A DNA stretch of 64,000 nucleotides from a virus. The number at the start of each line of letters is the position of its first letter. The stretch's first letter is position 1. Shown here in pieces: positions 1 to 35,428 of the stretch. The notes beneath the pieces are model-generated. The model made no database searches. It worked only from the letters and a program-made list of their open reading frames with translations, and had not been told where the DNA came from. The stretch covers positions 34,985 through 98,984 of IMG/VR virus record IMGVR_UViG_3300033753_000334. One strand, given 5' to 3'. Position numbers and translations under genes: made by a program.

Positions 1-3000
1 GCGCGGATGGCTGGAATAGCTGGTCTGCTACTCTAAAAACTGCTGAAGGTAATACGGTTCGCATGTCCGGTGTGATTAATATGCTGACCGGTGAAATCTA
101 TCGTCAATCTGAATCAATCCGGGAAGCGCAAAGTCGATTGGAACGGTATGCACAGATGTCAGCGATAGCGTCACCATTTGCCAATTCAATGCGTGGGGGT
201 CGCGGATGGCAGAAGGATTATTCTGTACAAAATTACAACCCGGTAACAAGTGGGGGTGCAGAAATCGATCCGGGCGGAGATACAAAAACGTTCATGGGTT
301 CCATTGTTAATACTATGCGATACATGCTGTCCGGGATGCTCATGGGAACACCTACTATGATGTTCCACTCTGCATTCGAAGCAGCAAAAGAATTTGATTA
401 TCAGCTTGAGAAAGCGCGTCAAAACTTCGTTATCAAAGACCCGAAAATGTGGAATCAAGCGATAGAACAAGTGAGTATGAGGCATGGTGATGTGAAGGAT
501 AAGGAAGAATTAAACAAACTTGTGAAAGAAGAATCAAACCGCCTTATATACGAAATCAGGGATGGAGCAGTTGAGCGTCTGCAAAACATTGCGATCACGT
601 ATGCAGTTCCGACTGCCGAAATATCGAAGGCATGGCAGATTGCTTCGCGTATCACAAATTCAGATGATGAAGCAATCGCCTTTACGCGAGAAGTAGCCAA
701 AGTTCGGACATTGGAACAAGTAGACGTAGAAAAGGCAGCAATGGGATTCGAAGCGGTAAAATCACAGTGGGGTTTGAACGGCTATCAGTTGGAGAAGTTC
801 AACAATATGATGATAAAAGCCGCGAACATTTCTACAGCTACAGTTGAGGACTTGCTGGATTTCCAAAAGCGTGCCGGTTCGATTATGCGTAATAATTTAG
901 AGGGGGCAGGATTGAGCAAAAATGATGCGGCTGCATCTTCCATTGCATTTGCATCCTTGTTCAGTCAGGGTTCGGGCAGAAGTGGGGCAGAAGGTGGTAC
1001 ATTTGCGAAAGCTGTAACAGAACGCCCATACCAAAGTGCGCAGGCTGAATATTTCAAGAAGAAGGCCGAACAGTTAAACATTGAGGAATTGAACCCATAC
1101 AAGATAGATGAGTTTGGAAATGTACACAAGAGAGCCTTCACTGACTGGTTTGCTGCGCTATCGAAAGCAATGGTGATAGCGATGCCGACCGACCAGACAG
1201 AAATACTCAAGCAAGCGGCAGGTGTATACCATTCCGGTTCATCAGCGGCAATTCAGGCGATGATTACAGATATGCAGAAAAATGCTGCGGAGATTGCAAA
1301 AAGAGTCAATAACAATCGCAGATCACTAGGGCTAGAAGAATTCGACCCGAAGGCTGATATGGACAAAATAATGAAAGAGTATATTAAGAAAATTAGCGAA
1401 GCAACACCGGAAGAGTCCGAAGTCATGCTCGCTGGAATGTCCACTACATGGAATTTTCAAATTGATCGTGTCAAAGCGATGTGGGAGTCCTCTACATTCA
1501 GAGTGCTTGATGCTTTGAAACCGGAGTTTCAGGATCTGACGACCACATTAGGGGTTTTACTTCGTTCGATGCGAGAAAATGCTACAACATGGGCACAGGC
1601 AATCACAGGAATCACCAATATCGGTATGATGTTAGCAGTTGGATATGGCATGAATACACTCTATAACAAATGGAAGGGATTCGGTCAGCAAACGAGAATG
1701 GATGAAATTGACAGACAACGGGGCTTGTTGCAGGCAGAACGTGGAGCCATTAGTCTTCGCAAGGATTTGTTGGAAGATCGCCTTGCACAATTCCATAGTC
1801 AACATGGGAAAGAAATTGAACGTTTTAACGCGGTAAAAGATGAAAAAGTGTATAAATCGCGTACTGAGTTGATGCAGGCGGAGTGGGATGTGCAGCAAGC
1901 ACGAGACAACTATGAGCGTAGAAAAGGTACGCTCACACCATTCGAGGATGAACAGGAACGGGCGAAAATGTACAGCCTAGAGCGTACAGTGGCGGACAAA
2001 CGAAAAGTAGCGGAGGAACAGGAAAGCAAGCATGGACTTGATTCCAAAGTATTGGATGAATATAGCCGCCTGCAAACGGAAATGGCGCAAGTGGCGGTGC
2101 AGGCTACACGATTAAACCAACGCATGGATATGCTGGACAGAGGGGCGCAACAGTGGGGAGTGGATGTATCGCAATTACAAGTGAAGATGGACAGGTTAGA
2201 CAAAGAGTTTCGGAACGGCTCCATCAATATGGACATGTACAATCAAATGATGAAAGAAACAGCAAGAGCGGCAGGTGTGGCAGAGGATAATATCGAACGC
2301 TTGCAGAAGGAAATGGATAAACTTGAACGCGAATTTAGAGAAGGTGGAATGAGCGCACGAGTCTTCAATAAACAAGTCGATCATCTACGAAACATGCACT
2401 TAGCCGGAGATGCGGCACTTCCGGGCGGCGGGTACGGCGGGAGAGCAAATCAGGGCGGCGCAGATATGTTAAATATGGTTGCGCAAGCTTCCTTGTTCGG
2501 CGCACTCATGGGAGGGTTCAGTGACCGCTCCATATTCACACGCACAGGAGATTTATTCGCGCTAATGAAAGAAGCGGTACGAGAAGGCTCAGCGAGTGGA
2601 TTTATTCGTAGTTTTGGAAGTTTCTTCGGTCGTGGACTTGAACGAGATGAAAACGGGAAAATCGTGCGTGATGAAAATGGGCGCGTCCGTAAAAGACAAC
2701 TTGCCCCAGAGCCAGAAGGTGAGCAGGGAAAAGGTAGGGGGGCGATGAGTAGGCTTGCAACGAGTTCACCACGATTAGCAGGGGCTTTAGGTGGCGGATT
2801 GTCGATGCTTCTTAGGTTATTAGCGGGCGGAGTCGGTTTAGGGCTGTTGACTGGTGGATTCGCTGCATTTACCTATGGTATGGCAAACGATAATGAGAAG
2901 ACGCAGATTGATATTCAGCAATTCAAGGATATCGAGAAGAATGTCATGGCGATGAAAGAATCTTCCTCTTGGTTTATCAGAAGCGTAGTCGGTGTAAAGG

Positions 3001-4343
3001 AAATCATCGACACACTTACCGATGGAGTCAAGTCGATTCTAACAGATGGTTCTCTTGATGGATTCAGAAAGCATGGTAACGCATGGGTGATGGGTTGGAA
3101 CGCACAAACACCGAAAGAGTTTGAGCAGCAGATGGAAGCGCAGGCAGGAGCTCGTATCCGTGAGCAAATGGTTGAGAGGTACGGAGAAGCTGAGGTAAAG
3201 AGACGGGAACAAGTGTTTAGCGAGATGTATTTTAAAGAAGCGAAGACGCTGGAAGATTACAAGAAGATTAGTCATTCATTCCTCGAAAAAGACAGGCAAA
3301 AAACAGAGGAAGAAGAGAAAAAGCTAAAAGAATTCTCAGATAGAGCAAATGGTGTAATAACATATGAGACGATGCAGAGTATCCAAGAATTTCTTGAACC
3401 GATTAAGCGAAAGTTAGAAGTTGCCCGCTCGAATTCAGAAACAGGATACGAAGTTGCCAAGACAAAAGCATTGTTATCAGGGATGCGTGAAGATTCAGAG
3501 CAGGTACGGAAACTAACCAATGATTTCTTGAAAGCACAAATCGGATTGCTTCGAGCGTATACAGCACAAATAGATGAGAAAATGAAGGAAATGATTAATC
3601 GGGCAAAAGAAGAAGAGAAAAAAGGAAAGGTAGGGGAAGTTGAAAAAGTAATGAACAGCCCGGAGTTTATCGCACTCCAACTGGATAAGAACACCCACAA
3701 CGCTCAAATAGTACAAATGCAACTCCAAATGCATCAAACAGATTTATCGGCGATCAGCAGTATCACAACCAAACTGGAACGTGCAAAACGCATGGCACAA
3801 GCAGAAGGAAATATCCGTCGTTCGAACTTGCTACTCGGTGGCGCAAAAGAAGATTCAATGGCTGTCAAAATGGCAGATCGGCAGACGATGTTGAATATCA
3901 ACAATCAAATTGGTCAGGCGATTGTGGAACTACAAAAGCAACTGAACAGTGGCAAGTTTCAAGGTGAAGATCGTAATGATATTTTGCTTCAAATCAAGGA
4001 GCTGCAAGCAGAAAGCCGGGATAACCTTGTTAAAATCCGCGAAAAGATGACAAACAGTCTGTCCACGTACAACTTGCCATCCGGGATTCAAGGAATGACC
4101 TTCCAGGAAGCGATGCAGCGTAAAAATGACTACCGCTCGTATGCGATTACGCAGGGTGGTTTGACAATCAACGTCAACGTACCGGTACAGGGGAATTTTG
4201 GCGATGAGAAGGTAGCGAAGCAGCGCGGGCAGGCAACGGCACGGCAGGTGGCACAAGAAGTATCGAATATCCTGAGTCGTCAGGTGAAATCGTTTGGAGC
4301 GGGAGTGGGGTATTTCAGCCCGTTCGCCGTTGGAAGAACATAG
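1..4343 (+). CDS. Phage tail tape measure protein (5' truncated by window edge)
   Basis: >1426 aa, helical/coiled-coil and Ala/Gly-rich, with tape-measure-like segments (KAANISTATVEDL, SGAEGGT) and hydrophobic stretches; the frame is open upstream of ATG 63 to the window edge; followed by tail genes. Confidence 0.88.
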   Translation, partial: ADGWNSWSATLKTAEGNTVRMSGVINMLTGEIYRQSESIREAQSRLERYAQMSAIASPFANSMRGGRGWQKDYSVQNYNPVTSGGAEIDPGGDTKTFMGSIVNTMRYMLSGMLMGTPTMMFHSAFEAAKEFDYQLEKARQNFVIKDPKMWNQAIEQVSMRHGDVKDKEELNKLVKEESNRLIYEIRDGAVERLQNIAITYAVPTAEISKAWQIASRITNSDDEAIAFTREVAKVRTLEQVDVEKAAMGFEAVKSQWGLNGYQLEKFNNMMIKAANISTATVEDLLDFQKRAGSIMRNNLEGAGLSKNDAAASSIAFASLFSQGSGRSGAEGGTFAKAVTERPYQSAQAEYFKKKAEQLNIEELNPYKIDEFGNVHKRAFTDWFAALSKAMVIAMPTDQTEILKQAAGVYHSGSSAAIQAMITDMQKNAAEIAKRVNNNRRSLGLEEFDPKADMDKIMKEYIKKISEATPEESEVMLAGMSTTWNFQIDRVKAMWESSTFRVLDALKPEFQDLTTTLGVLLRSMRENATTWAQAITGITNIGMMLAVGYGMNTLYNKWKGFGQQTRMDEIDRQRGLLQAERGAISLRKDLLEDRLAQFHSQHGKEIERFNAVKDEKVYKSRTELMQAEWDVQQARDNYERRKGTLTPFEDEQERAKMYSLERTVADKRKVAEEQESKHGLDSKVLDEYSRLQTEMAQVAVQATRLNQRMDMLDRGAQQWGVDVSQLQVKMDRLDKEFRNGSINMDMYNQMMKETARAAGVAEDNIERLQKEMDKLEREFREGGMSARVFNKQVDHLRNMHLAGDAALPGGGYGGRANQGGADMLNMVAQASLFGALMGGFSDRSIFTRTGDLFALMKEAVREGSASGFIRSFGSFFGRGLERDENGKIVRDENGRVRKRQLAPEPEGEQGKGRGAMSRLATSSPRLAGALGGGLSMLLRLLAGGVGLGLLTGGFAAFTYGMANDNEKTQIDIQQFKDIEKNVMAMKESSSWFIRSVVGVKEIIDTLTDGVKSILTDGSLDGFRKHGNAWVMGWNAQTPKEFEQQMEAQAGARIREQMVERYGEAEVKRREQVFSEMYFKEAKTLEDYKKISHSFLEKDRQKTEEEEKKLKEFSDRANGVITYETMQSIQEFLEPIKRKLEVARSNSETGYEVAKTKALLSGMREDSEQVRKLTNDFLKAQIGLLRAYTAQIDEKMKEMINRAKEEEKKGKVGEVEKVMNSPEFIALQLDKNTHNAQIVQMQLQMHQTDLSAISSITTKLERAKRMAQAEGNIRRSNLLLGGAKEDSMAVKMADRQTMLNINNQIGQAIVELQKQLNSGKFQGEDRNDILLQIKELQAESRDNLVKIREKMTNSLSTYNLPSGIQGMTFQEAMQRKNDYRSYAITQGGLTINVNVPVQGNFGDEKVAKQRGQATARQVAQEVSNILSRQVKSFGAGVGYFSPFAVGRT

Positions 4344-4352
4344 ATTAATTTG

Positions 4353-4381
4353 AGTCGCTACCGTTTGGTGGCGGCTTTTTT
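4353..4381 (+). terminator. Rho-independent terminator after the tape measure gene
   Basis: AGTCGCTACC-GTTT-GGTGGCGGCT stem followed by a T run. Confidence 0.75.
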
Positions 4382-4598
4382 GTGGTATGTTTCGTCAAAG
4401 CTATCGAAAATACAAAATGATTCACCATTGTATGCTAAATATTTACATGGTATGATAGAGTAAACCAAGAAAATGACGAACGATTCATACCCTATCATGC
4501 CATGTTCTCTAGTAGAATGATAAGCAAATTAGAGGACATATGGCTATCTTAAAAACTGGACAAGCCATATGCTATCTAGATAAAGGAGCTGATAGTGT

Positions 4599-4760
4599 AT
4601 GTGCGATAAGAACGGAAAGGGTGATGATGATATGATGGAAGTAAAAGAACAAAAAGTTCAAAACATGACTAAAGAAGAGCGCAAGCAGTATGCCCGTGAC
4701 CGTATTAAAAAAATCTGTGACCGTAATGATTCTGCATTAAGGAGATTGTCTAAAAATTGA
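4599..4760 (+). CDS. Small putative antitoxin for the Doc-family toxin (alternative start 4632)
   Basis: Not in the ORF track. AAAGGAG RBS; ends ...DRIKKICDRNDSALRRLSKN; its stop overlaps the TTG start of the doc-like gene; the C-terminus resembles Phd-type neutralising helices. Confidence 0.6.
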   Translation: MCDKNGKGDDDMMEVKEQKVQNMTKEERKQYARDRIKKICDRNDSALRRLSKN

Positions 4761-5173
4761 GTTTAGAAGAATTTGATATAGTTCCTTTAACTTTAGACGA
4801 TATATACGTAATTCATGAGGAAATGTTAGAACGTTACGGCGGGATTTCGGGGGCTAGAGAGCCAGGGTTAATAGAGTATATGACCGAAAAACCCTTTCAA
4901 GAAACTTTCGGCTATATTCTTTACCCTGGCTTATTTTTAAAAGCAGCTTGTTATATGGAGGGATTTGCTACTCATCAATATTTTAATGATGGTAATAAAA
5001 GAACAGCATATGGTTGTGCAGCTTTATTTTTAGATTATAACGGATTTACCATTATTGTTGATGATGAAGAGCTTTTCAATATGACTATGGACGTTGCTCT
5101 TAGAAGAGTTGACGTTAACGAACTTTCAAAGTGGCTTGAATCAGTTTCAGTTCCCTCAGAATACATAGAATAG
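4757..5173 (+). CDS. Doc/Fic-family (death-on-curing) toxin
   Basis: Doc-like layout (IHEEMLERYGG..G.R, LFLKAA) and motif THQYFNDGNKRTA. Confidence 0.88.
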   Translation: MSLEEFDIVPLTLDDIYVIHEEMLERYGGISGAREPGLIEYMTEKPFQETFGYILYPGLFLKAACYMEGFATHQYFNDGNKRTAYGCAALFLDYNGFTIIVDDEELFNMTMDVALRRVDVNELSKWLESVSVPSEYIE

Positions 5174-5174
5174 T

Positions 5175-5206
5175 AAAACACTCTCCTTCAACAGAGGGTG
5201 TTTTTT
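5175..5206 (+). terminator. Rho-independent terminator
   Basis: AAAACACTCTC...GAGGGTGTTTTTT inverted repeat. Confidence 0.7.
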
Positions 5207-5285
5207 ATTTCGCTTAATTTTCCGACAAATATAAAGGTGATTGATGTAAAATGTAGGAAAAAGAAAGAAAAGGGGAGAGGAAATT

Positions 5286-6328
5286 TTGAAGATTGTACAG
5301 TATGTTGGAATAACCATTATATGCCTGTGTTTGCTGATATTAGGTGGGGTGTATGTGCAGCAGACGTTTTTTCCGTTTGAGCGGGGCGCAAAGACGGTGG
5401 GTGTGGATAAACAACCTGAGCCGGAAGTGAAGAAAGATGAACAGGTGAAGGTGGCAGAAAAAGTAGCAGAGACAGAGCGTGAGGAGAAGAAGAAAGGCGC
5501 GATTGTTAGTGGGCAGTTTGCTGTAATAAACAATCCTTGCTTTGCAGCGACTTCAGAGGAAGCGCAAGACGAAATGTATGCGTACATTAGAGAGGGGAAT
5601 ACAGATGGAATTATGAGAATGATGGTCAGATACGATATTTTCAAACTTCCTAAAGGAACGGGAGTGAATGTTGTTAAGCGTGGCTTTACAACGGCGGTGG
5701 TGGAAGTTGTAAATACAGGTGAAGTCGGAATAGTCCCTGTGGAATTTTTGTCTCACCCTGATGATGAGCAGGTGGTTGGTGTTTCTAAAGGAGCAGATGT
5801 GACTAAACCATCAGCTTCTGCGTCTTCTCATCAAGCTAATAAGAACACTGGGAACAATCAAGTATCTTCTGTTGAACAATATTTCCGTGATTTGAAAACG
5901 TATGCAGGAAAAGGGCAGTTAAAGGGAGTAAGTGTAAAAATAGGAGATACACAAGATAAGGTAACAGCTAAATATAAAGAACCATTAGATACAACTTATT
6001 TTAACGGTGGGGATTGGCATGTGTACCCATCTTTCGTTATCATTTTCAACAAAAACGAAGAGGAAGAGACTAATAAAATAGTAGCGCTTGCGATTGACAA
6101 AGATAATATCAAGAAAAAACATGCTGATTTGACTTTTGCCCAAATCAAAAAATTCTTGGGAAACCATTTGAAGAAGCACACGACGAGGATAGTGGTGAAG
6201 GTGATAATGAGTGGCGCCTCGATTATAAAAGCGGTTCATATATACTTTCCTTTCGTGCTTATACTGAAAAAGGAAAAATAAAAGGGATTTACGTTTACAA
6301 ATATAATCCTAATAGCAGACCTGCTTAA
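5286..6328 (+). CDS. Membrane-anchored protein with a C-terminal YjgB/DUF4309-like domain; apparent frameshift near 6160
   Basis: N-terminal TM helix. The track ORF ends at 6281, but restoring one base at TTGGGAAACCA gives the family-like ...IKKFLGKPFEEAHDED...YKSGSYILSF... ending at TAA 6328. Confidence 0.55.
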
Positions 6329-6343
6329 AAATATATAGTAGAG

Positions 6344-7099
6344 GTGAGAATGATGAAAAAGTCAATTGGAAAACTTGTTTTGATTTTGTTGGTGGCAGTC
6401 GTATTATTTCCAGTTACAGTATCGAATGGGGTAGTGGAAGCAGGAACGGACCCAGCGCTTGTTGACAATATGAAAAAGAAGAGTCGTCAGTTTTTCGATA
6501 TGAAAGATGAGAATGGTGTGACGTATAACGTTTATATTTTCTCAAATAACGAAAAAAAGAAAGTGACAGGAAGAAGCGATATATGGGCAGGAGCAAGTGA
6601 AGGTGATATTTGGTATACAGGTGATTACCATATTGCTTTACGTAAGAAAGGAAGTAACGTTGTGCATATTCAACGATACGATGTAGTAGGATACGAGTAT
6701 AACTATACAAGAAAAATGATATACCTTCTTTCGTCCAAGAATATAGGGCAGCCAGATATTATTTCGTTCTCTACAACTGAGTGCTCGAATTGCAGAGAAG
6801 CAAGAATGTATTATATAAAAGATGGGAGAATAGAGAGAGTTAAAATAAAAACTGATGATGATGTGGATGAAACACTGTGGTATTCAGAAAAGCCGAAGGT
6901 AATCGGTAAAAACTTGTATCAATCAGTGGTTTTTACAAATACAGAAGACATCGGAGTTCATTTCAACACCTACTCGTTTAATCCAAAAACAGGTGTTATG
7001 ACACTGATTAAAACGAAGAGTTATATCAACGATCAACAAGAACTAGGCGATGCCATTTATAAAAAGTGGAAAGCGAGTCCTGCCTATGTAGTCAATTGA
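6344..7099 (+). CDS. Secreted protein of unknown function (moron)
   Basis: Signal peptide MKKSIGKLVLILLVAVVLFP...VEA; 251 aa. Confidence 0.7.
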   Translation: MRMMKKSIGKLVLILLVAVVLFPVTVSNGVVEAGTDPALVDNMKKKSRQFFDMKDENGVTYNVYIFSNNEKKKVTGRSDIWAGASEGDIWYTGDYHIALRKKGSNVVHIQRYDVVGYEYNYTRKMIYLLSSKNIGQPDIISFSTTECSNCREARMYYIKDGRIERVKIKTDDDVDETLWYSEKPKVIGKNLYQSVVFTNTEDIGVHFNTYSFNPKTGVMTLIKTKSYINDQQELGDAIYKKWKASPAYVVN

Positions 7100-7179
7100 A
7101 CTTTAACCAAAGAGGGCATCTGTCCTCTCTAATGTTTTCGCGTCGTATCATCACGGGTTGCGGCGGTTTCGTCGTTCTG

Positions 7180-7236
7180 AAAAAATGAGGATGAACTAAC
7201 GGAATGAGACGAAGTTCCGCCGGCTCATCCTCAATT
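7180..7236 (-). terminator. Long hairpin terminator for the XRE gene
   Basis: Minus strand TGAGGATGAGCCGGCGGAA...TTCCGTTAGTTCATCCTCA followed by TTTTTT directly after the stop. Confidence 0.65.
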
Positions 7237-7674
7237 TTATGCTTCTGATTTCGCGGCGGCCTCTTCTCTTTCGTTTCCATTCACTGACTTGGACGACGTT
7301 ACTGTCCTGTCTCGTTGGCGCACCTCACTTCCCTGGCCAAGCAACAAGCCTTCGATGATTCCCTCCACTTTGATTCGGTTCTCCCTGGTCAACCGCCGGA
7401 ATTTGGCCAGAAACTCGATGTCTGCGGGAGAAAAATCCCCTCCGATTGCTTGCTCTGATATACGTGCGGATTTTTCACCCTCCCCTCTTAAAATCCAATC
7501 AGCCGAAACGTCAAAAAAATCGGATAACGCGATCAAAGCGTCGGCTCCAGGTTTAACCTTGTCCAACTCCCAGTCACCAACATTCCCGCGCGAAACGCCG
7601 ATAGCCTCCGCCAAATCCTTCTGACTAATTTTTTTGGTAGCCCGAAGCTCTTTGATCCTTTGGCCAATACTCAT
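7237..7674 (-). CDS. XRE-family HTH repressor, divergent from the Cas12f operon
   Basis: MSIGQRIKELRATKKISQKDLAEAIGVSRGNVGDWE...P; GGAGGGTG RBS supports ATG 7674. Confidence 0.92.
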   Translation of the reverse strand: MSIGQRIKELRATKKISQKDLAEAIGVSRGNVGDWELDKVKPGADALIALSDFFDVSADWILRGEGEKSARISEQAIGGDFSPADIEFLAKFRRLTRENRIKVEGIIEGLLLGQGSEVRQRDRTVTSSKSVNGNEREEAAAKSEA

Positions 7675-7717
7675 TAGATCACCCTCCGCATTAATATTCG
7701 AGCAATACAAGAAAAAT

Positions 7718-7770
7718 ACACGTAAAATTACGCGTTTATTGTTGATTATACACTAATATACGTGTATTAT
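7718..7770 (+). promoter_or_regulatory. SigA-type promoter with two operator-like inverted repeats
   Basis: TTGATT (7742-7747)-17 nt-TATTAT (7765-7770); imperfect palindromes ACACGTAA-AA-TTACGCGT and ATACAC...GTGTAT, the second filling the -35/-10 spacer. Confidence 0.65.
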
Positions 7771-7835
7771 ATTGGTAGATAGAAAACCACATCACAAACC
7801 GATTCTACCATACCGCAATAGGTGCAAACAGTCGA

Positions 7836-7852
7836 ACCTTGACAACTGAATA
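7836..7852 (+). promoter_or_regulatory. boxA-like antitermination element
   Basis: ACCTTGACAACTGAATA resembles the Firmicutes rrn boxA (CTTTGAAAACT..A); lies in the 5' UTR of the Cas12f operon. Confidence 0.45.
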
Positions 7853-7889
7853 GCAAGATTCAGTGGATATTTGTGAGGAGGGAAATCGT

Positions 7890-8387
7890 ATGAACCAAAA
7901 AACTGGTTTGCTAGACGAGATGATGGCATTTTTGCTTCAACCTCATAGACTCACATACAAAGACGTATACACAGCACTTGATATACTCATTTTATGTCCG
8001 GAGTGGGAGCGAGAGCAAGCATGGGATATTTTGAAGGCGGTGACTCGTAGATACGAAATTGCCCCCGCTGATGATTGGCAGGAAGAAACAGGGGATTTTC
8101 TCGAAGATATGAAAATTATTTTGGACAGACCGGAACGACCGGATGATATTGAACTGTACGATGCCATTATTTCGCTAATGTTGTGCCAGGAATCGGAACG
8201 CGAGGAAGCGTGGAATATCATGCGAGCTATCGTGTATCGGTATGAGAACGAGCCAATCGTTTCGACACAAGATGTAGTTGATGTAGAAGAGTTGTTTCAA
8301 GAAATATTTCGTCTGATTAGCTTGGCAGAGCAGTTAAATCAAGAAGAAGTAGAATACTACGATGGCTATTCTGTGCTGGTGAGCTAA
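7890..8387 (+). CDS. Acidic two-repeat hypothetical protein, first gene of the Cas12f operon
   Basis: GAGGAGG RBS; internal duplication LCPEWEREQAWDILKAVTRRYE / LCQESEREEAWNIMRAIVYRYE; D/E-rich. Confidence 0.75.
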   Translation: MNQKTGLLDEMMAFLLQPHRLTYKDVYTALDILILCPEWEREQAWDILKAVTRRYEIAPADDWQEETGDFLEDMKIILDRPERPDDIELYDAIISLMLCQESEREEAWNIMRAIVYRYENEPIVSTQDVVDVEELFQEIFRLISLAEQLNQEEVEYYDGYSVLVS

Positions 8388-8413
8388 ACACAGGGCAGGA
8401 GTTGTTTGGGCTG

Positions 8414-8580
8414 ATTCGGCAGCCTCAAGTCGAGAAGTGCGCTAGAAAGGATAGCGCAACACTCGATAAGGTACACGCTTATGCGTGGGAAACGTCATAC
8501 ATGAAAACCGTATGACCACCATCGTCGGTCAGGAATGATGTGAAAGTATCAGGAGAGCGACGAATACAAAGAGCAGGAAT
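8414..8580 (+). ncRNA. Cas12f1 tracrRNA, copy 1
   Basis: Same layout as the AsCas12f1 tracrRNA as I recall it (5' ATTCG, CGAGAAGTGC stem, CTCG.TAAGGTA); anti-repeat ATACAAAGAGCAGGAAT (8564-8580) complementary to the array 1 repeat. Confidence 0.85.
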
Positions 8581-8664
8581 ATCACAGTTTCTGCAAGATA
8601 TGAGCAGAAAAGTGCAAGACATGCTGATGACCTGAAAATATAGAGGTTTCAAGGCTTCGCATGA

Positions 8665-8892
8665 GTTTCTGCTCGATGTAACTGGAGTGCGAAGTTGGCT
8701 CTTATCTTCCTGCCCGAGCAACAGTCCTTCGTTTCTGCTCGATGTAACTGGAGTGCGAAGATAATTTGATCGAGCTGTGCTTTTTCATCCAGCTTTGTTT
8801 CTGCTCGATGTAACTGGAGTGCGAAGGTAAGTAAGGTCGGCGATAATGGAAGGGAGAGCAGTGTTTCTGCTCAATGTAGCTGGGGTGCGAAG
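8665..8892 (+). CRISPR. CRISPR mini-array 1: 4 repeats, 3 spacers
   Basis: 30-nt repeat GTTTCTGCTCGATGTAACTGGAGTGCGAAG at 8665, 8731 and 8797, with a degenerate copy at 8863; three 36-nt spacers (8695-8730, 8761-8796, 8827-8862). Confidence 0.96.
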
Positions 8893-8924
8893 TTCAATGC
8901 AGCCAAAACAAGGGAGGCAAGAAA

Positions 8925-10193
8925 ATGAAACACACGAAAGTCATGCGCTATCAAATTATCAAACCAATCAACGACACGTGGGAAACGTTGGGACATGTTC
9001 TGCGAGAAATCCAGCGAGAGACACGCGCGGCGCTAAACAAGACTATTCAACTCGCTTGGGAATGGCAGGGATTCAGGGCAGAATATAAGCAACGTTATGA
9101 AGAATATCCAAAAACAAAAGATCATCTTGGATATTCAGCGCTGCATGGCTATGCCTACAATCGCCTGAAAGATGAGTTCTACCGAATGAACACAGCTAAC
9201 CTATCCCAGACGGTTAAACGTGCGGCAGACAAGTGGAAATCCGACCTAAAAGACGTTATGCGCGGCGACAAGTCAATCGCCAGCTTTAAAAAAGATTGTC
9301 CGATTGATATCGTGTCCCAGGCGCTTAGAATTCGCAAAGATGGTAGTGACTATATTCTGACACTAAGCCTAGTGAGCATTAAATACAGAAAGGAACTGGA
9401 ACGCAAGCAATCATCATTTGATGTTCTGATAAGTGCAAATGATAAAACACAGCGTGATATTCTTGACAGGCTCATCGCTGGAGAATACAAGCTTGGAGCA
9501 TCACAATTGCTCTATCACAAGAAAAAATGGTTCGTTAATGTGAACTACCAGTTTGAGAAAGAAGAAACAGCATTCGACCAGGATAACATCATGGGTGTTG
9601 ACCTGGGGATCGTCTATCCGGTATACATGGCGTTCAATAACTCGTTACATCGGTATAAAATAGAAGGTGGGGAGATTGAACGGTTCCGAGCACAAGTAGA
9701 ACGTCGGAAGAAACAATTACTTCAGCAAGCCAAATACTGCGGCGAGGGGCGGCGTGGTCACGGAACGAAAACACGTATCCAGCCAATTGAAGTTGTCTCA
9801 GACAAAGTAGCCAATTTTCGAGATACAGTGAATCACCGATACTCACGCTATGTTGTGGATATGGCTATCAAGCATCGTTGCGGTACAATTCAGATGGAAG
9901 ACTTGACTGGTATTGCAACAGACAATACTTTTTTGAAAAGTTGGCCGTACTATGATCTGCAACAGAAAATAGAATACAAGGCTCATGAAGCAGGTATACA
10001 AGTTGTCTATATCAAGCCTGATTATACAAGCCAACGTTGCTCGAAATGCGGTCATATTGAACGCGATAATCGAACAGAACAGGCGACATTTGAATGTAAG
10101 TCATGTGGCTTTAAGACGAATGCTGATTTTAATGCAGCACGAAACATTGCCACAAAGGATATTGAGAAGATTATCGCAGAAACATTGAAATAA
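8925..10193 (+). CDS. cas12f1: Type V-F CRISPR effector Cas12f1 (compact, TnpB-derived RuvC nuclease)
   Basis: 422 aa, collinear with AsCas12f1 as I recall it (ALNKTIQLAWEW, NLSQTVKRA, YKIEGGEIERFR, ANFRDTVNHRYSRY); RuvC residues GVDLG / QMEDL / NADFNAARNI and Zn finger CSKC..CKSC intact; adjacent arrays and tracrRNAs. Confidence 0.94.
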   Translation: MKHTKVMRYQIIKPINDTWETLGHVLREIQRETRAALNKTIQLAWEWQGFRAEYKQRYEEYPKTKDHLGYSALHGYAYNRLKDEFYRMNTANLSQTVKRAADKWKSDLKDVMRGDKSIASFKKDCPIDIVSQALRIRKDGSDYILTLSLVSIKYRKELERKQSSFDVLISANDKTQRDILDRLIAGEYKLGASQLLYHKKKWFVNVNYQFEKEETAFDQDNIMGVDLGIVYPVYMAFNNSLHRYKIEGGEIERFRAQVERRKKQLLQQAKYCGEGRRGHGTKTRIQPIEVVSDKVANFRDTVNHRYSRYVVDMAIKHRCGTIQMEDLTGIATDNTFLKSWPYYDLQQKIEYKAHEAGIQVVYIKPDYTSQRCSKCGHIERDNRTEQATFECKSCGFKTNADFNAARNIATKDIEKIIAETLK

Positions 10194-10219
10194 TGAGCTG
10201 TTTAAAAATTTTCGGGGCG

Positions 10220-10387
10220 ATTCGGCGTCCTTGAGTCGAGAAGTGCTTTGGAAAGTACAAAGTGGCACTCGATAAGGTACACGCTTATGCGTGGGAAACG
10301 CTATGCATGAAAACCGCATAGCCACCATCGTCGACCGATAGTAGCGTCAAAACTACTGAGGATCGACGACATACAGAACGCAGGAAT
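10220..10387 (+). ncRNA. Cas12f1 tracrRNA, copy 2
   Basis: Paralog of 8414-8580: identical 35-nt block (10266-10300 = 8460-8494), compensatory changes in stems, anti-repeat CATACAGAACGCAGGAAT (10370-10387) complementary to the array 2 repeat. Confidence 0.85.
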
Positions 10388-10470
10388 GACGGTAGGTTTT
10401 CGCATTCAAGCAGAGATATCTTTCTGAATATAAGAAGCGAGAAAAGTAGTAATATCAAGCTACTTCGTGT

Positions 10471-10568
10471 TTTTCTGCGAAATGTATATGGAATGCGAAG
10501 GAGAACAAGGTAGAACGATAAGTCTTGAGGAAGCCAAGTTTTCTGCGGAATGTATATGGAATGCGAAG
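10471..10568 (+). CRISPR. CRISPR mini-array 2: 2 repeats, 1 spacer, different repeat type
   Basis: TTTTCTGCG(A/G)AATGTATATGGAATGCGAAG at 10471-10500 and 10539-10568; spacer 10501-10538; shares the TTTCTGC and TGCGAAG ends with array 1. Confidence 0.88.
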
Positions 10569-10578
10569 AGGTGATCGC

Positions 10579-11187
10579 ATGTCACAGGTTAAAGTTTTTG
10601 ACAATGCTAACGAACCACACAAACGAAAACTTTTCTACGCCACAGGTATCGCAGGGGCGGAATGGAAAGAAGTCCCGGCACGTATCATCGAGCCATACTC
10701 TCCACCGACTCCATCCTTGCGTGTCAAAGAAAACAAAGTACTGAACGCTCCATCAGATTTAGTCGGCAGTACCACAGCAAGCTATCGAATGAAAGCGCGG
10801 CTACTATTCCAGACGCGGCAAGATTTGACTGCATACCTTGTTTATATCAATTATCCGCACAAGTTTTATGATGAGCGCGGCGTGATTTATATTGGCTCAG
10901 TCGATGACCACATTCCAAGTGTTCACGAAGGGTTGCAGCGTTACACAGTCGAAATTTCCATGCTTATGACAAGGAAAGACCAGTATGATAAGAAGTACGA
11001 GAATCCATTTTCTGATACGAATCCTGATGCATGGTATTACAAAGATTTACTGGAGCTTATTGACATGGGCGTTATCGCTGGAAAAACAGATACAACATTC
11101 CGGCCTAACGACTACATTTCTCGTGCCGAGTTTGCCGCGCTGTTGAACAGGATACGCAGGCTTGCTGAGTTAACAATTCGGACATAG
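10579..11187 (+). CDS. Tail protein (distal-tail position) with a C-terminal SLH domain
   Basis: Likely start is ATG 10579 (GAGGTG RBS), not 10525 inside the array; FSDTNPDAWY...GVIAG..TFRPNDYISRAEFAALL is an SLH motif. Confidence 0.75.
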   Translation: MSQVKVFDNANEPHKRKLFYATGIAGAEWKEVPARIIEPYSPPTPSLRVKENKVLNAPSDLVGSTTASYRMKARLLFQTRQDLTAYLVYINYPHKFYDERGVIYIGSVDDHIPSVHEGLQRYTVEISMLMTRKDQYDKKYENPFSDTNPDAWYYKDLLELIDMGVIAGKTDTTFRPNDYISRAEFAALLNRIRRLAELTIRT

Positions 11188-34927: not shown

Positions 34928-35428
34928 ATGAATGGTGAGTTTTATATAACACCGGAGGAATATGAAAAAGCTCAAAAGAATGGCATAAATGCTTTCAATC
35001 TGGAGCGACGCATCCGTTTGCTTGGTTGGAGAAAGGAAAAAGCGATAAACACACCTGTGCGAAAAAGGTGTGATCGAAGTAAATGGGTGAAAATCGCAAA
35101 GGAAAACGGTATTAAGTACAATACGTTTATGAGCCGGGTAAATGTTTACGGGTGGGATGAAGAGCGTGCTGCGAGCGAGCCTCTACAAAATCGGCAGGCA
35201 GCAGCACATAAGGCGCATGAGAAAATCCGGGTGCTTCCACGTGAATATGTTGAATTAGCTAAACAAAACGGAATTTCCTATTATACTTTCCGTCGGAGGA
35301 TTAAAAAAGGATGGGATGCTGAGAAAGCAGCTACACATCCAGTTATGTCCAGCATTGAAGCTGGAAGAATGGGGGCGCGGAAAGTCAGAGAGTTGTATGG
35401 TGACTGGAACAGGGTTTCTTTTAAATAA
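34928..35428 (+). CDS. Phage protein with three tandem HTH-like repeats
   Basis: A..NGI...TF..R....GW..E.A...P repeated three times. Confidence 0.7.

Follow-up and report, generated by a model that had tools for sequence, protein, structure and literature searches.

A phage-borne type V-F1 CRISPR-Cas12f1 locus with two tracrRNA-array cassettes, both present in RNA libraries, flanking a single nuclease gene

The locus described here raises the question of whether one Cas12f1 nuclease encoded by a phage is served by two guide modules, each made of a trans-activating CRISPR RNA (tracrRNA) and its own repeat-spacer array, and, if so, how separate these modules are and how the second one arose. 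The locus lies in a stretch of 64,000 nucleotides (nt), hereafter the window, which covers positions 34,985 to 98,984 and thus the right-hand part of the IMG/VR provirus record IMGVR_UViG_3300033753_000334 (98,984 bases, estimated to be 77% complete). Between 8408 and 10568 of the window, all on the plus strand, tracrRNA 1, array 1, cas12f1, tracrRNA 2 and array 2 follow one another, and every element was found at the place given in the original prediction, which had been made from the sequence letters alone. The central claim of that prediction, one Cas12f1 gene with two complete and structurally conserved tracrRNA-array cassettes, is supported by the RNA fold, by the depth of RNA contigs and by the lack of a second cas12f gene. 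Probably, the guide module of a type V-F1 system on a phage island was duplicated within this lineage, and both units, which are transcribed, serve one Cas12f1.

The product of cas12f1 (8925-10193, plus strand; 422 amino acids) contains the Pfam PF07282 TNB domain (E 9.9e-25) and aligns end to end with the AsCas12f structures 8j12 and 7wju (residues 4-422, E 1e-153). In a HMMER alignment, the RuvC motifs GVDLG, TIQMEDLT and NADFNAARN and the CxxC...CxxC zinc ribbon line up with those of AsCas12f, at the catalytic positions named in the AsCas12f paper, in agreement with the earlier statement that the RuvC residues are intact, and in a maximum-likelihood tree the protein falls in the AsCas12f clade. 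The predicted absence of cas1, cas2 and cas4 extends to the whole 98,984-base record, itself 77% complete by estimate, in which no match to PF01867, PF09827 or PF01930 was found; absence of adaptation genes has been described as usual for the type V-F1 subtype. Effector size and domain, the RuvC triad, the tracrRNA scaffold, the repeat pairing and the array all agree with type V-F1 (formerly V-U3), for which an effector of about 400-550 amino acids with a C-terminal TNB/zinc-ribbon domain, repeats of ~30 nt and spacers of 33-39 nt are expected and 422 amino acids, repeats of 30 nt and spacers of 36 and 38 nt were found. Judged from its sequence, the locus is a type V-F1 CRISPR-Cas12f1 system of the AsCas12f clade.

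For comparison, loci encoding protein relatives of the nuclease (numbered with the prefix L) were fetched, 25 from genomes and IMG/VR and 66 from metagenomes. A covariance model, R1 (185 positions, 41 pairs), was based on an alignment of both window tracrRNAs with those of L016, L002 and L005 (Sulfoacidibacillus, AsCas12f-type). These five sequences fold into five stems with 17 of the 41 pairs compensated, and R1 finds exactly two tracrRNAs in the 99-kb record, far beyond chance: tracrRNA 1 at 8408-8582 (plus strand; 176.3 bits, E 1.5e-50) and tracrRNA 2 at 10214-10389 (plus strand; 176.5 bits, E 1.3e-50), both with the same covarying consensus fold. Stem 1 of tracrRNA 1 occupies 8408-8427 (loop AUUCGG) and is followed by stems 2, 3 and 4 (to 8516), the segment CACCA (8517-8521), a hairpin (8522-8563) and a post-hairpin anti-repeat (8564-8580); the last three parts lie at 10323-10327, 10328-10369 and 10370-10387 in tracrRNA 2. 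The 35-nt identical core noticed previously was confirmed (8460-8494 and 10266-10300), and an exact copy of it occurs nowhere else in IMG/VR. Likewise confirmed were the compensatory stems that had been quoted as signs of structural selection (GCGCTA/TAGCGC vs GCTTTG/CAAAGT; GTCATAC/GTATGAC vs GCTATGC/GCATAGC). When the two tracrRNAs are compared over the 41 modelled pairs, 28 are unchanged, 2 have changed on one side to a wobble and 7 have changed on both sides and still pair; these seven fall among the 30 modelled pairs of stems 1-4, none of which is broken. The four pairs scored as broken between the copies are all within the hairpin, where each copy uses a register of its own.

Each tracrRNA is accompanied by a short array. 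Array 1 (8665-8892, plus strand) consists of four 30-nt repeats, GTTTCTGCTCGATGTAACTGGAGTGCGAAG (8665-8694, 8731-8760, 8797-8826 and 8863-8892, the last copy being degenerate with 3 changes), and three 36-nt spacers (8695-8730, 8761-8796 and 8827-8862), and array 2 (10471-10568, plus strand) of two 30-nt repeats, TTTTCTGCGRAATGTATATGGAATGCGAAG (10471-10500 and 10539-10568), and one 38-nt spacer (10501-10538). Repeat and tracrRNA can be matched at two places. In ~35 loci the stem-1 loop is complementary to the last 4-5 bases of the local repeat, with at least ten Watson-Crick combinations of loop and tail (UUCG:CGAA, UUCA:UGAA, CUCG:CGAG, CUCA:UGAG, CUUG:CAAG, CUCU:AGAG, CUCC:GGAG, CUUC:GAAG and others). 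Because loop and tail covary across so many loci, this pseudoknot is strongly supported as a specificity contact. In the window it is identical in the two cassettes (loop UUCG, repeat tail CGAA). The second contact is a longer duplex, which cofolding predicts to be split by the hairpin, with CCA:UGG before it and UAC(A):GUA and (G)AGCAGGAA:UUUCUGCU(C) after it; the main anti-repeat is (G)AGCAGGAA or CGCAGGAA, with AUAC or AUACA 5' of it. The proposal that each anti-repeat tracks its own repeat reduces to a single pair that is compensated (U:A to G:C), together with its neighbor. For the long duplex, cofolding predicted a binding energy of -17.3 kcal/mol when tracrRNA 1 is combined with repeat 1, of -15.2 to -15.4 kcal/mol when tracrRNA 2 is combined with repeat 2, and of -11.8 to -12.7 kcal/mol when the partners are swapped.

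The large TCGTCG...CGACGA hairpin had been singled out as a feature not known from the AsCas12f1 scaffold. It does not form part of the published single-guide scaffold, which is described in the AsCas12f paper as stems 1-4 plus two repeat:anti-repeat duplexes; however, it is encoded in AsCas12f-type loci, being conserved in sequence and structure in L005, L016, L030 and L002, and is thus found clade-wide and is not special to the phage. What differs is its position. In L005, L016 and L002 most of the anti-repeat sits between stem 4 and the hairpin, whereas both window copies have only CACCA before the hairpin and the main anti-repeat 3' of it. Because the main anti-repeat follows the hairpin, the tracrRNA:repeat complex is predicted to form a three-way junction, and the placement of the hairpin inside the anti-repeat is a real local peculiarity. 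Immediately 3' of anti-repeat 1 lies a degenerate repeat-like stretch (8587-8620, plus strand), which starts with GTTTCTGC and ends in GCAAGAC instead of GCGAAG. In the cofold it pairs back onto the anti-repeat, giving a natural hairpin like that of a single guide, and its tail lacks the CGAAG required for the pseudoknot. A similar degenerate stretch is present directly after anti-repeat 2, at about 10393-10425.

Both cassettes appear to be transcribed. A search of public sequencing runs with 8390-10600 as the query returned 20 metatranscriptome runs from 20 study codes, each containing 0.31-0.38 of the sampled words, and contigs from two RNA runs (X5 and X20; phyllosphere) and two DNA runs were placed on a 3.6-kb stretch around the locus. 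Cassette 1 is represented by RNA contigs 100% identical to the window, at 8465-8902 in X5 (depth 194) and, in pieces, at 8429-8903 in X20 (depth 92-163), and cassette 2 by equally identical contigs at 10271-10616 in X5 (depth 147) and 10271-10574 in X20 (depth 125). The few other contigs of X5 and X20 on this stretch have depths of 2-4, and the two DNA runs are flat at 4-8. Carry-over of DNA would not produce such a difference in depth. Within the limits of assembled contigs, the outcome that the original prediction named as speaking against it, expression of a single cassette, was not observed, as both are on high-depth RNA contigs in X5 and X20. In 18 further RNA runs the word share was 0.31-0.33, matching the 0.34 expected from both cassettes together. 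The contig starts at 8465 and 10271 correspond to the first 31-mers unique to each copy past the 35-nt core and are thus assembly breaks and not RNA ends; similarly, stretches lacking RNA contigs (the body of cas12f1, the tail genes and 10214-10270) were not taken as a sign of silence. The X20 contig of depth 92 starts at 8429, just 3' of stem 1, with Illumina adapter sequence ahead of it. This adapter-like loose end may mark an end of RNA or cDNA and hints that fragments often terminate here, through processing or where reverse transcription stops, but it is not interpretable from contigs.

Doubling of the guide module is not confined to the window. The covariance-model search suggested along with the original prediction, when run together with profile searches over all loci, showed the window, L014, L045 and L046 to contain more than one tracrRNA, L047 and L044 being truncated copies; inspection by eye added L024 (from IMG/VR) and L075. 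In a quick maximum-likelihood tree of 52 proteins, the window and the doubled loci fall in four separate clades, so that doubling recurs in at least three clades beside that of the window (L045/L046, L014/L075 and L024). With close relatives left out of the count, 4 of ~50 non-redundant loci are doubled. The cassettes of the doubled relatives are in tandem on one side of the gene. A comparison of L045 with L046 gives a likeness of 75% for the A-type tracrRNAs and of 68% for the B-type, against only 56-65% between A and B; since like types resemble each other more than unlike ones, the doubling predates the split of these loci, and both cassettes have been kept. Moreover, the two cassettes of L045 and of L046 have different pseudoknots, each fitted to its own repeat tail, which constitutes true private pairing. 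The cas12f frame of L014 (Neobacillus paridis, 6001-7191) has an internal stop at about codon 338 and may be a pseudogene or contain a sequencing error. In L002 (Croceifilum oryzae, 5589-8823), a full tracrRNA and a solitary degenerate repeat are located upstream of cas12f; downstream there is a tracrRNA remnant reduced to the hairpin, and an array whose repeats, at least 19 in number, come in heterogeneous variants. It looks as if a double layout flanking the gene had decayed on its two sides in complementary ways. Full-text searches of a literature library turned up no account of a natural Cas12f locus that has two tracrRNAs, and a review of CRISPR on mobile elements (PMC11656645) does not mention a doubled tracrRNA. 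What is new here is the doubled, co-evolving cassette of helper RNA and array; the family of the enzyme and the RNA that goes with it are already familiar.

How the two cassettes of the window relate in function can be weighed from these results. It had been proposed that they are semi-orthogonal scaffolds, perhaps used at different life-cycle stages. Functional orthogonality, in which each tracrRNA would work only with its own array, or stage-specific use, with separate regulation or separate sources of spacers, would fit the stability of the cognate duplexes, which are predicted to be favored by 3-5 kcal/mol over the swapped ones, and the base pair compensated between the cassettes, and the private pseudoknots of the tandem cassettes in L045 and L046 (CUCA:UGAG vs CUUG:CAAG) indicate that real orthogonality occurs in the family. 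However, the window cassettes share a single pseudoknot, the swapped duplexes still reach about -12 kcal/mol, and, according to the AsCas12f paper, the repeat:anti-repeat duplex can be truncated in its distal part; semi-orthogonality is thus unsupported. Use at different stages is not favored by the co-occurrence of the cassettes in X5 and X20, where their contigs are of similar depth, nor by the word share of the 18 further RNA runs, which equals that expected from both cassettes. We regard functional separation of this kind as very improbable. It is also quite improbable that one of the cassettes is no more than a recognizable duplicate that is decaying or has no function. In keeping with such a remnant, array 2 is limited to two repeats with one spacer, the last repeat of array 1 is degenerate, and the flanking layout of L002 has apparently decayed in a complementary fashion; yet the two tracrRNAs have equal covariance-model scores, the seven compensatory changes in stems 1-4 are accompanied by no broken pair, the pseudoknot loop and the repeat tails are intact, both cassettes are present on high-depth RNA contigs, and L045/L046 and L014/L075 have kept both cassettes across speciation-level divergence. 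Cross-use seems likely because the pseudoknot is shared, the swapped duplex remains stable and the distal duplex can be shortened in AsCas12f. The cassettes are therefore best modelled as co-adapted paralogues, which are probably preferred and not exclusive partners and which would cross-react.

As for the origin of the second cassette, the two window tracrRNAs are 73-81% alike (73% on the model alignment) and at most 66% alike to that of any other locus, and they have in common the shortened pre-hairpin segment CACCA and the identical core. As each is closest to the other and they have derived features in common, a duplication within the lineage is the preferred explanation. Alternatively, the second cassette could have been captured by recombination from the Cas12f locus of a related phage, or it could remain from an event in which the whole unit was duplicated in tandem and one copy of cas12f was later lost. 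Close relatives with a single cassette carry it either upstream of the gene (L017 and L031) or downstream of it (L016, L030, L005 and L001), and only the cas12f gene itself is common to the window and the nearest-relative loci, which suggests that the Cas12f module moves between contexts. In addition, DNA run X3, from a mixed-culture sample, contains a cas12f variant that differs at 58 of 612 bases (9432-10043; about 90% identical) and a phage variant that, upstream of the SLH gene, has unrelated sequence to the left of 10568, departing from the window exactly at the end of array 2, so that related phages with and without the cassette coexist there. Recombination at cassette borders may therefore have taken place. 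Against these points stand the mutual similarity of the window tracrRNAs with their shared derived features, the conserved phage gene that directly follows array 2, and the record itself, in which no second cas12f or fragment of one was found. The sole other match in the record is a distant TnpB/Cas12f-like open frame of 392 amino acids at its left end (G000:C1:1-1179), outside the window, with 22% identity over residues 202-413. Capture or unit duplication is thus an unlikely though realistic origin, and it concerns the origin only, being compatible with the use of both cassettes.

Several observations weigh against a duplicated guide module in which both units serve one nuclease, or at least temper it. 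The closest relative protein is only 64% identical, and the age and route of the duplication are therefore not datable. The RNA support consists of assembled contigs, which are silent on strand, ends and true levels, and the 5' third of tracrRNA 2 (10214-10270) is on no listed RNA contig. No convincing promoter was found before tracrRNA 1 or tracrRNA 2, the counts of promoters and terminators being not above those in shuffled sequences. Array 2 has a single spacer, and three of the four spacers are without a known target. Finally, we infer the binding of the RNAs by the protein, and with it the loading of both RNAs by one protein, their cross-reactivity, their targets and the origin by duplication.

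The spacers provide one indication of what the system may recognize. For spacer 2, one DNA contig of run X3 matches only the 36 spacer bases, with 255 unlike bases on either side and ...CTTTA directly 5' of the match. The match is thus a protospacer in other DNA of the community. The protospacer-adjacent motif (PAM) reported for AsCas12f is 5'-NTTR, to which the TTTA flank conforms, no more than a hint of the PAM-dependent double-strand DNA cleavage, guided by the two RNAs and performed by an asymmetric dimer, that characterizes type V-F1. The spacers had no match in the phage record itself or in ~95 fetched loci, a blastn search against INPHARED phages gave a single chance match of 22 nt, and exact 22-mers of all four spacers had no match in IMG/VR. 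Two ideas on the guides were rejected. One was that spacer 1 derives from a homologue of the neighboring XRE gene. The reverse complement of this spacer resembles the codons for EGLLLGQ of that gene (23 of 36 positions overall, 17 of 21 in the best sub-window), a likeness that does not rise above chance, as shuffled spacers reached at least 17 of 21 in 27 of 200 trials (13%), and the predicted peptide was present in none of 42 XRE homologues. The idea of a guide formed by the terminal repeat and the downstream phage sequence and directed against relatives such as the related phage L096 was dropped, since the sequences differ there. As to the suggestion that the cassettes perhaps draw spacers from different host adaptation modules, a degenerate repeat pattern allowing 3 mismatches was found in none of 3 genomes with a related Cas12f and in none of 61 genomes of the likeliest host family, to which the Brevibacillus genome L001 belongs; 14 of these 61 carry a related tail gene (~40% identity). 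This speaks neither for the suggestion nor against it.

The genomic setting agrees with the claim that the system is phage-borne: a tape measure gene is located upstream (63-4343), genes for an SLH-domain protein, a tail-associated peptidase and virion structural proteins follow downstream according to Pfam and PHROGs, the virion structural proteins being encoded from 16493 on, and IMG/VR labels the record a provirus. L096, whose neighboring tail gene product is 71% identical, has the same flanks with other content between them and no tracrRNA, and its homology to the window restarts at 10569-10579, at the ribosome-binding site of the following phage gene, which the last repeat of array 2 abuts. 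Because L096 shares the flanks and not the content, the Cas12f locus is part of a 6-kb accessory island. This variable island (4343-10579, no strand assigned) was delimited by the synteny break against L096, Pfam and PHROGs and extends from the tape measure gene to the SLH-domain tail gene. Besides the Cas12f locus it contains a gene of the Fic/DOC family (4757-5173, Pfam), an XRE/CI-type repressor-like gene (7237-7710, minus strand) divergent from the Cas12f operon, and an open reading frame for an acidic protein of 174 amino acids (7863-8387) just upstream of tracrRNA 1, which has two internal repeats of ~55 amino acids each and no Pfam or PHROG match. None of these three genes, nor either of two further open reading frames without assigned function, adjoins any other cas12f locus that was fetched, which gives no sign that they are accessory factors.

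A model that would account for these observations is as follows. In the tail-gene region of a temperate phage of roughly 100 kb with a host of the Bacillota, an accessory island would carry two paralogous units, each composed of tracrRNA, leader and mini-array, which would have arisen by duplication and now flank a single nuclease gene. Each tracrRNA would adopt the scaffold of the family (stems 1-4) and hold its CRISPR RNA (crRNA) by two contacts, the 4-bp pseudoknot between the stem-1 loop (UUCG) and the repeat tail (CGAA) and the longer duplex, and both tracrRNA:crRNA pairs would load the same Cas12f1 dimer. With long duplexes that have co-evolved and a pseudoknot that is shared, the partners would be preferred without being exclusive. 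Lacking adaptation genes, the phage would possess the four spacers as a fixed repertoire. Its most likely targets would be rival phages or other mobile DNA in the lysogen, and its role the defense of the lysogen or competition with other mobile elements. We tentatively suggest, as a possibility, that Cas12f1 systems devoid of adaptation genes renew their guides not by the spacer but by the self-contained cassette of tracrRNA, leader and mini-array, which can be duplicated, diverge and be exchanged between phages. If this is the case, an incoming or drifting array would be usable by the resident nuclease because it brings its matching tracrRNA, the private pseudoknots of L045/L046 would represent an end state and the window an early one, and a change of targets without Cas1-Cas2 would be explained.

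AsCas12f1 is one of the smallest enzymes now used for genome editing, with its guide scaffold as a main target of engineering. Two scaffolds that apparently serve one nuclease of 422 amino acids map the positions that can vary (stems 1, 2 and 4 and the position of the hairpin) as against the invariant 35-nt core, and renewal by cassette, if it occurs, would supply natural pairs of scaffolds for one miniature nuclease. The private pseudoknots of L045/L046 further suggest that one Cas12f could be run with two guide sets that do not interfere. The recurrence of doubled cassettes in phage-borne systems without Cas1-Cas2 also bears on how guides are acquired and retained and on conflict between phages in lysogens.

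Among known systems, the nearest is AsCas12f1 of Acidibacillus/Sulfoacidibacillus sulfuroxidans (PDB 8j12, 7wju, 8dzj), with which the window system shares the length of 422 amino acids, the catalytic and zinc-ribbon residues, the stem 1-4 fold, the pseudoknot of the stem-1 loop, repeats of ~30 nt, the absence of adaptation genes and a compatible T-rich PAM. Whereas in L005 and most relatives a single tracrRNA and a single array lie downstream of the gene, the window has two of each, one on either side; its anti-repeat is mainly after the hairpin, and mainly before it in L005, L016 and L002; and it is carried by a phage and not by a chromosome. The tandem loci L045/L046 (metagenomes), L014/L075 and L024 likewise combine one cas12f1 with two cassettes in which each tracrRNA is matched to its own repeat, but these cassettes are on one side of the gene, and in L045/L046 their pseudoknots differ. 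The type I-F system of Vibrio phage ICP1 (bioRxiv 10.64898/2026.04.20.719267) is similar in that the effector is encoded by the phage itself, together with more than one array directed against competing mobile elements, but it belongs to class 1, has adaptation genes and a single repeat type and uses no tracrRNA, whereas in the window the helper RNA itself has been duplicated and has diverged. Viral mini-arrays, which are reviewed in PMC11656645, resemble the arrays described here in holding one to three spacers on a virus and are thought to target related viruses; they depend on host-type repeats and host effectors, whereas this phage brings both the nuclease and the tracrRNAs.

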